DNA of 61,547 bases. Origin: Stylophora pistillata (Eukaryota). This document shows, in pieces, positions 8,945 through 55,300 of the stretch. The notes beneath the pieces were generated by a model. The model was not told where the DNA came from, did no database searches, and was given only the letters and a program-made list of their open reading frames with translations. The stretch is from contig NW_019217949.1 of assembly GCF_002571385.2 (NCBI RefSeq), forward strand, positions 118,529-180,075, given 5' to 3'. Position 1 is the first letter of the stretch. Every line of letters starts with the position of its first letter. A program made the position numbers and the translations under genes.

Positions 8945-8986
8945 TTGACGATGTTTTGATGTTGCTTCACATCATTTTCAAGTCAA
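8945..8986 (-). ncRNA. Degenerate minimal hammerhead ribozyme motif (U3-A8 type)
   Basis: Minus strand: ttgac TTGAAAA t gatgt-gaagca-acatc AAAA ca TC gtcaa. Stems I and II pair; G12 and G16.2 are changed to A at CpG positions. Confidence 0.55.
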
Positions 8987-9015
8987 GACTGTTAATGATA
9001 AGTGAAAATATATAA

Positions 9016-9016
<1 letters not shown>

Positions 9017-49300: not shown

Positions 49301-52300
49301 TTGATTGGCTATCACGATAACCTCTTACCACACTGAATAAAAAAGCACTCCATATTGCTTATTGAGTCAATAACACATTGTTGCGCGTTTAGGTGCGACT
49401 TAGCCGGTAGTGAGCGACTCAAGAAAACCCAGGCAGAGGGAGAAAGACTTAGTGAAGCTCAACATATTAACTTGTCTCTACTTGAGTTAGGGTGAGGATT
49501 TCCTTGTTTATTTAGCTCATTAATTCAGTGTAAGAACTTTCCATGTAAGCGTGTTAGCCAAAGTCGTTTTAGCCCGCGAGTTTGATCAGAGGTGTTGCTT
49601 TACAACGTTACGAGATCCATAACGATAATCAACGTGGAACTTTTGAAATGTTCGTACTTCTCTCCACTTGGCTAGGAAGATATTCGATTCTGCCCCGATA
49701 GGGAAGATCTTCCAGTGAAAAGGGAAGCAACCTTCACTCTTATTTGACCCATTCTGTTCTAAATGAGATTCTTTTATGATAAACTTAAAGCTTTAGCAGG
49801 TTTTATCCCGCCGTAATTGTTCGTAGGAATGTTATCCAGGCGTTGGCAGAAGGGAAGAAGACCCACGTTCCGTTCCGGAATTCTACTCTAACAAGGCTGC
49901 TTCAAGAAAGTTTGGGTGGAAACTGCAAAACAAGTTTAGTGGTAGGTATTAAATCAAAGGAAATGATGGAATCGTGCGACTTTAGACGAAACCGTCCGAA
50001 AATACACGGGAACCTACTTTATTAATATATGCTACTCTGACTGGGAATCACTCAAGCGTCCTTGTGTTCCGTTCTTAATGCAAGTAAGTAAGCGATGGCA
50101 GGACGGATAGACACACAAGCGCTGTCTGCAATTTCAAATGAAATTCTTTCTCGATCATGTTATGGTGTACAAATCATGGCTAAAACAAAAACACATTTTC
50201 TTTAAACCGTAAGACTGAAATGACGCGCTTGTTAAATATGCTGTTAATGATTGTGTTAGGTGTGTGTTTCTCCAACCATGGGTGATGTTAGTGAGACTAA
50301 AAGCACTTTGTTCTTTGGATCCCGAGCAATGAAGATCACAAATACTGCTTACATTAACGTTGAGGTAAGAGTCATCTTAAAAAGAACCATATGCATTGGT
50401 GTATTTTCCGTTTATACAAGTGGAAATTGCTGATTAGAGCTTGCCACGTCAACTATATCATGCAATGGAACGTGGTTACGAATGAAGGAGAATATGTTTG
50501 TTTGGTACATACTTATATGTTCGTGCCATTTAGAAGCCCTTTAGCTTGTCTCCCTAGTTTAGTGTATTAAAGTTTCCCCTCCTAGTTTTTTTTAAATATT
50601 AAGTGACTTTTCGGCAGTCAAATCCAAAATTACAGATTTACAGATGGGGAGGAGATCGTGGGAAACTTTCTGAAGACTTGCGTTGCGTGGCTCTCTCTCG
50701 GGCAAGTTTTTCCCTGCTCAGTATCAAGCCCCGATAGACAAGCTGCTGAATGATGTATCTTCTCAGTACTTTATGACATCTCTCAATGTGTTTCCATGCT
50801 CGTCACAACAGATCTTTACTCTCTAGAGACGTAACGTAACGTCATTCTCTATTTTTACTTTCAATCGCGCCGATGCAGAGCTTTCTTGACTTCTTTTCCC
50901 TATTAAATTTTGTATTGTAGGTTGATTACAAGAGACTTAGTGAAGATCTTTCAAAGATTGTGGATAGGAGAGGTAAATCAGAAAACATTTATCTAACTTC
51001 AACCAGTTCCCCATTTAGAAAAATACTCCCTCCTCATTCAGCACAATTTAATTGTGTGGATTTTTAATGAGTAGTGCACGGGCACCGTGGTACACAGAGA
51101 TGAGTGTTTTGTGCCCCGTGGTACAAATGAATCAATGAACCAATCATTGGCACTCAAGATGGCTCAAGGTATCGCACAATCTCTTCTCTGATTGGCTGTG
51201 TACCACAGAACCCCATATGCCACTCAAATAGGAAAAACTTTTTCGTGAGGATACTAGTAATGAATAGATAATAGTTACGAGTACTTAAAAATGTAACATT
51301 AAAGGTGAGAAAGATGATCATTTCCTGACTGAAATCGTCTTCTTTAAGAAAAAGATCTTGAAGATCTAAAGCAAACGTTTGAAACAAGGATAGAGCGACT
51401 TAAACACGAGGCGGAGAGGACTGTGACAAATGCCATGGCAGAGGCAGACAGAGTGGTGGCATCTGTGAAGAGTCTCTACGAAAATGAGGTGGACAACACT
51501 ATAAATTTTTAATTTTTGGATCACTGTTGTTTTCCGAATAGTTTGAAAAACTGGAAATGCAAAGCGCAAAGCTGGACTCTTTGCAACCTCAATGTTTCGT
51601 AAACTTGTTCATAAAGCTGGAAATAACGTGAACTGATATCTAATTCAGTTTTGATGGCCTCCAGATTTTAAAGGAGCTATGTCACTTCCTAATCCATGTC
51701 AATCTTCCAATCCTTCAATCTTCCTGCTTGTTTTTGGTCACTCCCTTGTTATTTGGTGTTTGTCTACACTGGTGAGGTATTATGATAATGTTTCCTATAT
51801 TTAAGGCGGATCCTTTTTTCGTTGAAGTGACATATTTATAAGCTATTGCTATGCAGCTTTAACTTTCCGTTTGAAACGTGACATACACTCGATGTGTGTT
51901 GTGCCCCTTGTTAACTATTCTGTTTCGAACGGTTTTCGAATGAATGAATGAATAAGTATGGGGCTTCGCTGCGCGCGCTGCGAACTCCGCTGGAAGGAAA
52001 AGTGACACACCTCAGCGCTATGTTTGAGAGCGGAACGAGTGAAATTGATTTCACCGGTAAAAAAAACTCAAGTTTTTGATTGTATTAAATTCACACATTT
52101 ACTGATCGTCTTCTTTTCCATAGACAAGTAAAAACGAGTGATATAATATCCCGACGTTTCGGCGACTTCATGACGCCATTATCAAGGGTACAAATGAAAA
52201 TAAAATTTACAAATGCGAGTTCAAATCCGTGCAAACGGATTCTATCCGTGCTAAAGTATTTGTGTAGCTACCTCCCCTATGCAAATTAGTTGTAACTCTT

Positions 52301-55300
52301 GAACTCGCATTTGTTAATTTTATTTTCATTTGTACCCTTGATAATGGCGTCATGAGGTCGCCGAAACGGCGGGATATTATATCGCTCGTTTTTACCTGTC
52401 TATGTATTACTAAATCTTTGTTAATACGTCTTCTTTTTCCTCTTCAGAAATCTAGTTTGGAGAGCGACATAGAAAATCTCAACTTCAGATTAGACGAAGA
52501 GAAAACGCACACAGAAAACCTTCAAGATCAGATAACAAAGGCAAAAGGCAAACTTCAAGAAGACATGTTCAAAGCAAGAAGCACCCTTCTGTCAGATATT
52601 ATCTCTATGCAGCTGTTGTACGCACTCAAAGATTTGCCCCTCGACAATGATCACCACTTCTCAGAAAACGATTTGAGTCTCAGGGATTTCTGCTCTCAGT
52701 GGGCTACAACAAAATGCAAAATTCTGGAAAACGCGGACGTGCTTTTAGATCTGCTCAAAAGTTATTTGAGTTTAATGAATTCCAAAGGAGACAAGTTACT
52801 GGAGGACGGTGGAAGTCTGAAGAGTTTGGTCGGATGTGAAGAGTCGTTTAATGCCGATAAAAGATTGTTGAGTGCCTCTGAAGAAGTTTCATTGTACATG
52901 ACAAATAAAACTGACGATGACAAGGTTGTTGCATCGACGGGTTGTTGCGAAATTCTTCCATGTTCTGAAACGAATACCGAAGACTTTATCCTATCGACTG
53001 AGCAAAATCTGGGAGATGGCGAAGAGAGTTCCAATATTAGAAACAAGCTGATTTCACTAAAAAAATTTATGGACGACAAAGCGCTAGCTTTTCTAACGAA
53101 AGCATTTGAGCTTGATGTAGGTAATGAAAACAGAGTAATAAACACGAGGCAAGACATTTATGGAAGGATTCAAGAAATCTTAAATCAAGAAGACACACTG
53201 CCAGGTGGGCATCTGAAAATTTCCTCAATTTTTTTTTTATAGTTTTGTTGCTTTATTTTTCCGCATCAAATATGTTGACAACCGTCGAAGCATTTTACCA
53301 TGTCTGCGAAGGAAAGAGAATTTGTCGCACTATGTTTACCTGACACTATCCTCAATCCTAGGAAAATACCTTCTTACACGGTTGTCTAAATATATTTTAC
53401 AATTTGAAATACATCGGCTCCATTTCCAGAAAAGACAGGCGCAATGCCTGAAATAACTGTGAATAGCCTCATCACTAAGAGCAGACCTTCTACTTGTCAT
53501 GATCGATCAGAGTAGATTGCGACATACAGGGGTAGATCGAGAGGAAATTGAAGATATAAGTACAACGAAAATAGGAAATGATGCAGATTTTGTTTTCACC
53601 CAAGTAGTAATAAAATGTTTCACACGACTATTGTTATAAGAATTTATTTTTTAGATTTTAGAGAGAATGCAGCGGAACTATCACATGTTGCTGACGCACT
53701 CGGCCTTCTTGACCACTGCCACAGTCACGTGATCGTAGATAAAGCGCTACAGGGCGCCTTATTGGTTTTGGAAAACAACATTGTCATCAAGCGATGTAAC
53801 GTCATCCAAAAGCAGAAAGACGTCTTGCAAGACGAAAACGAAACGTTGCGGAAACAGATCCAGATTCTACAGAAGGAAGCAGAGAAGTTAAACGGAAAAC
53901 TAAACGAGACTTCGTCATCGCTATGCGATGTAATGAAAAGCAAGGAACAACTAGAAGATGATCTTTCATCTGTGTTTCAGCTTCACAACATGAGAAACAT
54001 TGAGCGAAAGATACAGAAGGAAAACGATGGAAAGTTAGACATGAGCACCATTCTGCAGGAAAATGTCACAACTCTGTTAGAAAACAACACCAAACTACAA
54101 GAGACGCTCCAAGTATCGGAAAACGACAAAGAAAACTTGAAATCTGAGTTAACATCTGTTAAGGTGAGTGGTATGACTTTCTGCAAATTAATTTTTTTTT
54201 ACAATATCAAGTGACCTACTAGCCTTTTAGAAACTTCCTCGAGCTCCCCTGTTTATAATCAGCGGTCATCAACTCTACCCATCCTTATGCCTTAAATCAT
54301 CTTTCAGTGGTCATATTAGAAATGTACATTTAACGACAAAATGGAGGCCAGCTTAGAGTTTTCAGTAAAGATAATCTTAAGACCTCTCCAGAACAAAGAG
54401 GATAAAATTTGGTCACAGTTTTTCCCACCGTACAAATGTAATTGACGTTTGTTATTCAGCATCCTATTGAGAAATGCATTTTGTAACGAGGCACCTTTAA
54501 TTAAAAAAAAGAAAAACGATGAGACACGAATGTCATCAATAATGACGTTGACATTTGATGCAAACAGAACACAATAACGCAGCTATCAAAGGTATATTGT
54601 TAGCCAACCAACAAATAAAGCATTACCGGACTTATCGACTGACAAATCCTGATACACGATGCGACATGTCTCCACTGGACTTTTGTGACATTGCAAAGAC
54701 AGATTACTCAACCATCGTTGAGAGATGGAAACGAAGCTGACGTAACAGTCTGCAACGCAACTATTTGTATAACTTAACAGAGTACCACTTAAGTCATTCA
54801 ATCCTTTCCGACGATAAATCGACTGTTTCCGATGCTACCGACGATCTTCCGACGAATGCAAGTCCAAGTCACTCTGAAGTCATTTGTTACGAATTCTGTG
54901 AAATCATATCCGTTACAAATGTTATATCTAACAATTCTAACGGGGTGCAAATTGCAATCACACAACGGTGACGGACTGTTATGGAAAGATTTAAGACGAA
55001 GTGTTATCAATTTGTCAGGGCTCTCCCTGGAGGCTATGGGAAAGGATGACCCTAAGGACGCGCAAAGCTTGAAGTTTCACTTTATTACGCACGCAATACG
55101 GACCCGCTTACAGGACTATTTCCGAGAGATACCGAACTCTTCAACCCTCCTCTAAAAACTTTGGAAAATCAACATCTGGATGGCTTAATTTGTCACAGAA
55201 TGGGGCACGCATCAACTGTGACAGCATCTGCTTTCAAACGGAGTTCGTCCACGGCACTGCTATCTCCTCAAAGATATGGGCACAAAAAGAGCAAATGACT

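Follow-up and report, generated by a model that had tools for sequence, protein, structure and literature searches.

In this study, we examined a stretch of 61,547 nt from the genome of the coral Stylophora pistillata (the window; positions 118529-180075 of its contig, C166, in a source genome of 398 Mb) and relate eight hammerhead-like sites within it to Penelope-like elements (PLEs). The window has a GC content of 38% and holds pieces of G protein-coupled receptor (GPCR), Ras, PTPS and coiled-coil genes. An initial annotation had described the eight sites, named here by position (8945, 9277, 11178, 20277, 20326, 47376, 52150 and 52335), as minimal hammerhead ribozyme motifs. Our analysis indicates that they very probably represent 3′ repeats (pLTRs) that carry the hammerheads of five 5′-truncated PLE insertions from five families (A to E), with three hammerheads intact and five broken, and that all are likely inert at this locus.

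Results

Hammerhead-like sequence is present at all eight places, but only 11178, 20277 and 52150 are intact. These three pass a strict type I descriptor (zero core mismatches, stem II of at least 3 bp, stem I of at least 2 bp), against a mean of 0.025 matches (maximum 1) across 40 block-wise dinucleotide shuffles of the window; with stem I raised to at least 3 bp, the window retains two matches and the shuffles none. The architecture is as first described, with an extra nucleotide after A9, a short stem II and CG, CUAG or CAUG palindromes, and it includes the G10.1-C11.1 pair and palindromic stem III expected of a PLE minimal hammerhead. Both proposed core classes, C3-G8 and U3-A8, occur, but a third core was overlooked: site 47376 reads CCGACGA, a U4C change, and not CUGACGA. 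The core YUGANRA with GAAA..UH and stems I and II is found in the majority sequences of families A, B, C and D, and fails in the window copies 8945, 9277, 20326 and 52335.

Among the intact hammerheads, 52150 (family A) has a 4-bp stem II, an ACGU palindrome and a 3-bp stem I; 20277 (family C) has a 6-bp stem II, ACAUGU and a 2-bp stem I; and 11178 (family D, at 11182-11208 on the plus strand) has a 3-bp stem II, ACUAGU, a 4-bp stem I and a GUU site. The family E motif (47376-47403) keeps a 4-bp stem II and ACGU but has no 5′ arm of stem I, because it is 5′-truncated at position 3. Site 52335 is broken by U16.1G, site 8945 by G12A and a CG to CA change in its palindrome, and site 9277, its direct tandem partner (72% identity over about 150 nt), by A9U plus mismatches in stem II. 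Site 20326, which starts at position 4 and lacks C3, is missing 9 nt that comprise GAAA and the 3′ arm of stem II; in their place stands an 82-nt copy (20343-20424) of 19940-20023. This insert looks like the product of repair or of a template switch during or after insertion. Short microhomology is seen at its left junction.

Three pairs are found among the eight sites: 52150/52335 and 20277/20326 are each the arms of one insertion, and 8945/9277 is an old tandem. The eight motifs thus reduce to five insertion events of five PLE families, as the claim of several independent families had anticipated. Another 18 repeat segments of the window yielded no further hammerheads.

Every site lies within a dispersed repeat family whose members have a common 3′ end and differing 5′ ends, and the majority sequence of each family has a complete hammerhead fold. 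Because 40 candidates were scored in each family search, match counts are lower bounds: at least 85 from 335 candidates for family A, 43 from 79 for C, 47 from 96 for D and 48 from 1,548 for E, while the searches with the two window copies of family B returned at least 8 and 7 matches. The association with PLEs known for such motifs is borne out by GIY-YIG frames upstream of the hammerhead in other family copies and, for family E, by a reverse transcriptase as well. One family E locus (L206) has a 493-aa frame matching RVT_1 (E 2.3e-6) and, at its C terminus, GIY-YIG (E 2.4e-4), both just under the Pfam curated cut-offs; a PDB sequence search with the family E frame gave no match. In families A, C and D the endonuclease is recognized by motif and local similarity. 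An endonuclease frame lies directly upstream in the longer copies of A and D, and GIY-YIG-type frames precede the pLTR in four family C loci (L051, L041, L048 and L050); the A and C endonucleases are locally similar (26% over 239 aa, E 9e-16). The window copy of family D has an open frame (10497-11075) that covers a zinc-finger linker and a GIY-YIG remnant, the latter matching Pfam weakly (E 0.09). Moreover, the window copies of families A and C, like many family loci, consist of an inverted arm and a main arm with a tail, and an inverted 5′-truncated arm plus tail is a described shape of PLE insertions (PMC8557442, in the part available).

The coordinates of these features are collected in Table 1. 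Beside the family D insertion, and abutting it, lies a sixth PLE fragment (10424-10522), so that one PLE stands beside or inside another.

Table 1 PLE-derived features of the window, the adjoining host frame and a related family found elsewhere in the genome
Feature	Position	Strand	Remarks
Family B pLTR remnant 2	8873..9032	-	Degenerate U3-A8 hammerhead, from 8981 (position 3) to 8950 (position 17)
Family B pLTR remnant 1	9198..9357	-	Degenerate U3-A8 hammerhead, 9313-9282
PLE endonuclease C-terminal fragment, family A-like, hammerhead not retained	10424..10522	+	tblastn 55% over 33 aa, E 4e-7
Family D 5′-truncated PLE	10537..11296	+	Zinc-finger linker and GIY-YIG remnant, then intact C3-G8 hammerhead
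Family C inverted arm	20248..20328	-	Intact C3-G8 hammerhead, 20313-20281
Family C main arm with tail	20326..20498	+	Hammerhead-like part 20325-20430; broken, not a hammerhead
Family E (Neptune-type PLE) 3′ end	47376..47528	+	Core CCGACGA; cleavage position 47403
Family A inverted arm	52119..52224	-	Intact U3-A8 hammerhead, 52185-52153; antisense to host gene
Family A main arm with tail	52216..52428	+	Starts within last endonuclease codons; hammerhead 52338-52370
Open frame of spliced coiled-coil-rich host gene	52449..53242	+	Directly after family A pair; unique RNA bins almost all in one orientation
U3.G8 ACAUGU family	L341-L357, e.g. G000:C6:1331800-1334400		

To place the window in its genome, we applied a descriptor allowing C4 to an evenly chosen sample of 80 stretches, each of 10 kb, with 743,588 bases other than N. 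This sample contains 16 intact motifs, against 0, 0, 0, 1 and 0 in five shuffles, which corresponds to one per 46 kb and, by estimate, to about 8,000 per genome (4,500-12,900). The initial figure of about one motif per 8 kb had counted broken copies and duplicated arms, and the window is not enriched (2 motifs under the C4-allowing descriptor against 1.3 expected, P 0.38). Core patterns counted genome-wide, without stem checks and with the reversed pattern as control, gave 4,850 matches for ACGU (control 56), 694 for CWWG (control 6) and 810 for other two-letter inserts (control 154), many of the last being decayed CG copies. A large ribozyme complement is thus confirmed at thousands of copies, although it is not new in kind: for Acropora millepora, the accessible text of PMC7229834 reports more than 6000 type I motifs, which fall into 16 families and are mostly minimal and PLE-like.

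The predicted covariation of positions 3 and 8 is likewise found. In the first 100 of the 4,850 matches, whose copies are not independent, A8 accompanies U3 in 21 of 24 rows and G8 accompanies C3 in 72 of 76, and in nine families stems I and II pair through different letters. Plain CUGANGA searches do undercount, and the CCGACGA class (at least 2,817 copies) escapes the C3-G8 and U3-A8 descriptors alike. Against this background, the probability that the sites match a short motif by chance is vanishingly small. An Rfam scan of the window reports no hammerhead family at E ≤ 10 among its hits (14 other matches), and five of the eight sites fail the strict descriptor, as chance might have it, but the excess over shuffled or reversed controls in the window, the sample and the genome, together with the placement of each site in a repeat family with a complete majority fold, refutes this explanation.

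The U at core position 4 is not the rule in family E, in which the window copy and most genomic copies carry C4; we filed it as a core variant because the remainder of the motif equals a published Acropora motif. Exact 35-mers of family E number 2,817 with C4, 320 with U4 and 59 with the CpG-paired G5A change genome-wide, and in the youngest Neptune-type subfamily U4C is thus carried by the majority. In locus sets that were partly selected by the searches, the 36 C4 copies all fall into a single young type, with a median pairwise identity of 0.96 across 50 nt downstream, whereas older types (identity 0.82) account for 29 of the 41 U4 copies and 9 of the 41 look like reversions. We therefore rejected the idea that all U4 copies arose by CpG decay of a C4 master, an idea that the low number of G5A copies relative to U4 copies also contradicts. 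In two RNA runs of one study, C4 is carried by 82-83% of family E reads. On host exons the library is stranded, yet these reads are about equal on both strands, and this even split points to read-through of embedded copies.

A metagenome scan (at least 121 loci) gave 82 U4 and 46 C4 copies among the matches listed, those C4 copies having different flanks. A tree with position 4 masked, built from the 31 of 189 copies that were alignable over at least 60 nt upstream and 95 nt downstream, groups the C4 copies of this genome as a clade (100/99) separate from the C4 copies of the metagenome, and a single C4 clade is rejected by the AU test (p 1.6e-7). As the tree is unrooted, two gains of C4 are a parsimonious reading only, by which position 4 would have changed at least twice. 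The literature searched, for a family code as well as for U4C, gave PMC3088659 (on a viroid) as the one relevant source and contained no report of a U4C core in a PLE; the dimer work of Lunse et al. and the garbled drawings of PMC4209133 may hold one. A second PLE family, with ACAUGU and absent from the window, carries U3.G8 in 33 of 42 rows among the matches listed (Table 1). This form makes up a subfamily of its own, which has an upstream endonuclease frame and a C3-G8 sister subfamily, and an example of U3.G8 is printed in Fig. S3 of PMC4209133 (Saccoglossus 1).

In the random sample, the cut site is spanned by 29 of 35 family E hits; of the others, three begin beyond it and three stop short of it. 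The 5′ ends of 16 of the 35 lie within -8 to +7 of position 3; among copies at least 90% alike, 5 of 15 start there (p 0.005, for an interval chosen post hoc and with one hit ending before the cut site omitted). For older copies, starts near position 3 may mark the place where similarity ends, and the cluster of 5′ ends could be a transcription start or a template-switch hotspot. In family E copies, it is the hammerhead's 5′ edge, and not the cut site, at which 5′ truncation and inversion junctions gather (L077:1494-1508).

The gene that follows the family A pair is transcribed on the plus strand, with a GT..AG joint at 54161-55017. Its open frame at 52449..53242 is probably an internal exon, preceded by a pyrimidine tract and AG at 52430-52448, in which case the family A pair would sit in an intron; with this direction of transcription, the sense strand carries 52335, the broken hammerhead. 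We also considered whether the long open frames beyond 52268 are the element's own ORF, and rejected this: they are host exons that the family loci do not match.

Several other elements were noted. A high-copy repeat at 4932-5114 with tRNA-like sequence (Rfam tRNA at 5011-5083, minus strand, 48.9 bits) is probably a tRNA-derived element resembling a short interspersed element. Long near-perfect inverted repeats resembling miniature inverted-repeat transposable elements (20977-21726, 15988-16178, 14874-15044 and 37137-37309; arms up to 296 nt, 98%) account for weak Rfam microRNA matches. A further high-copy repeat at 46101-46421 has an internal hairpin, and no hammerhead was found in it; RNA reads on it show a joint that jumps 307 nt backwards, as tandem copies or a circle would give. 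Outside the window, the random stretches L138 and L110/L111/L141 contain canonical-type hammerheads with longer stem III (CCGCGG and CAGATCTG inserts), which are possible retrozymes. Two rhodopsin-family GPCR genes (6049-8084 and 31323-34081) each appear as two frames, a large one for the N-terminal part and another for the C-terminal part; a Ras-family exon lies at 13459-13905 (minus strand) and PTPS at 42010-42561.

Discussion

The set of hammerheads described here is itself ordinary, consisting of known PLE hammerheads at the expected density. According to the part of PMC4209133 available, pLTR minimal hammerheads have the extra nucleotide, the palindrome at positions 15.2-16.2, U3-A8 cores, opposite-strand pairs, large cnidarian sets and low activity as dimers. 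Like the metazoan PLE hammerheads of that source, ours have the type I minimal fold, a nucleotide between 9 and 10.1, the G10.1-C11.1 pair and a palindromic loop 3, and they share with them U3-A8 cores, solo truncated copies, opposite-strand pairs 100-700 bp apart and thousands of copies per genome. The abundance agrees with that of A. millepora, another coral with thousands of type I hammerheads (PMC7229834, as far as its accessible text goes). Non-LTR retrozymes are described in the same text as 220-240-bp tandem repeats with canonical, efficient hammerheads; in contrast, the window has no arrays of this type (short tandem repeats with an intact hammerhead per unit), its only tandem being the broken 8945/9277 pair. 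A preprint (10.64898/2026.07.22.740005, in the portion available) links retrozymes to PLEs.

What these motifs would do in an active element can be outlined from published work. Two copies of the same family on one transcript of a tandem element would form a double hammerhead (as PMC4209133, in its available part, suggests), with both palindromes as stem III and with each stem I made from the 5′ arm of one copy and the 3′ arm of the other. Cleavage of the dimer would be slow and probably protein-assisted, and partner choice would come from tandem proximity plus stems I and III together, not from the palindrome alone.

At this locus, such partners are wanting. No intact motif has a same-strand partner in the window, and no family A-E motif was found in the 10-kb flanks (14% and 46% of which are N); the sole same-strand pair, that of family B, has both cores broken, and the inverted pairs of families A and C fall in predicted hairpins (-185 and -95 kcal/mol, the former a 106-bp hairpin). 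Judged from sequence and predicted folding, these features make the window copies most likely inert. By nearest-neighbor energies, homodimers lie 2-18 kcal/mol above the monomer folds. Among the family E RNA reads no pile-up of ends is listed, which is a weak test in a random-primed library; since the reads are also multi-copy, they speak neither for nor against cleavage.

The same observations bear on whether some motifs have been co-opted by the host to cut host pre-mRNA, a proposal that we consider highly improbable; the family A pair next to the 52449 exon would be an example. The pair does lie inside a transcribed and spliced plus-strand gene, and three motifs of the window are intact. 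However, the sense copy is broken and the intact one antisense, with the pair in the predicted 106-bp hairpin, and the copies belong, as ordinary members, to young families. Among the RNA end clusters listed, one small cluster is close to a cut position, namely X24 with 5 molecules at 52367 (depth 21, in multi-copy sequence).

Some points weigh against five inert PLE insertions as the full account of the sites. Pfam found no match in the pieces of family A, and the link of families A, B and C to PLEs therefore rests on motif reading and local similarity. This link appears weakest for family B, where short C-terminal remnants of an endonuclease were found upstream of the hammerhead in loci L032/L219, L037 and L038 (local tblastn, E 5e-4 to 2e-3). 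A full-length copy with the order pLTR-ORF-pLTR was not recovered for any family in the 14 larger stretches examined, and direct repeats 2.3-2.4 kb apart in three stretches (L207-L209), all of which contain runs of N, enclose no frame of at least 200 aa. Finally, dimers may form in trans between transcripts of the 2,800-copy family E.

The initial annotation had further suggested that the different stem III palindromes may act as dimerization codes specific to each family; such a code would be selected to keep PLE families from cross-cleaving. There are grounds for taking this seriously: the palindromy is genuine, with CATG or CTAG in 97 of the first 100 of the 694 CWWG matches; ACAUGU of family C and ACUAGU of family D mismatch at two of six pairs; and the homodimer stems are the longest in the pairwise matrix. 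Yet the palindromes are shared too widely for a code. Families A, B and E, three of the five in the window, all use ACGU, as do at least 12 stem-II families (counted by eye in the first 100 of the 4,850 matches), 11 of the 16 motifs of the random sample and, by our own count in the available supplement of PMC4209133, 30 of the 56 animal representatives published there; ACAUGU occurs in at least five families in the first 100 CWWG matches. In addition, the ACGU duplex weighs only -1.7 kcal/mol, tandem transcripts make the choice of partner intramolecular, and the core of family E with the site of family F still gives a complete stem III (4/4) and a stem I of 3 + 2 bp.

Because each stem I of a double hammerhead joins both partners, we scored nine families pairwise, disregarding dimer energies for pairs with a 0-bp stem I, which are not hammerhead folds. 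For the five ACGU families, stem III forms 4/4 in all pairs, while both stems I reach at least 2 bp in 1 of 10 heteropairs. It is thus stem I, not the palindrome, that separates families. Cross-compatibility is not rarer than chance, with this one heteropair of the 10 against about 0.2 expected from random letters; families are mostly incompatible via stem I, as plain divergence would give, and no selection for orthogonality is seen. A selected palindrome code is therefore very unlikely.

Beyond the known kind, the U4C subfamily is a modest addition. The family E motif is printed, with U4, for a Neptune PLE of Acropora digitifera (Fig. S3 and Table S1 of PMC4209133, in the part available). All 56 representatives printed in that source have U4, as its descriptor demanded (the S2-S5 drawings being garbled), in contrast to the dominant young subfamily here. 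The identical core substitution occurs in a natural viroid hammerhead, in which, according to the available part of PMC3088659, cleavage is considerably lower in vitro and activity is enough in vivo. There, however, it is a rare variant of a canonical hammerhead, whereas here it is the majority form of a minimal, dimer-type subfamily of about 2,800 copies.

In the PAc Poseidon element of Anolis, which also has a pLTR hammerhead with a tail, cleavage is protein-assisted and unneeded for insertion in vitro, the main template is unprocessed RNA, and zero RNA-seq reads end at the cut site, according to the accessible text of PMC11167929. Such behavior fits family E, because most copies span the cut site (29 of 35) and no pile-up of ends is listed. 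The core mutants of that study were engineered, whereas U4C and U3.G8 are natural and fixed in amplified subfamilies. One could propose that successful coral PLE subfamilies have been selected for weakened hammerheads because uncut RNA serves as their template. We regard this as a tentative and somewhat unlikely proposal; neutral drift in a dispensable ribozyme is an equally good explanation of U4C.

The accessible part of PMC8557442 calls the role of full cleavage in PLE retrotransposition unclear, and the data of PMC11167929, in the part available, are in vitro only. If U4C lowers cleavage in this coral as it does in the viroid, its amplification in thousands of copies would be evidence from nature that PLE retrotransposition can do without full cleavage, or is even hindered by it. 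If selection for weakened hammerheads were true, the natural C4/U4 pairs would make the question of what PLE hammerheads are for directly testable.

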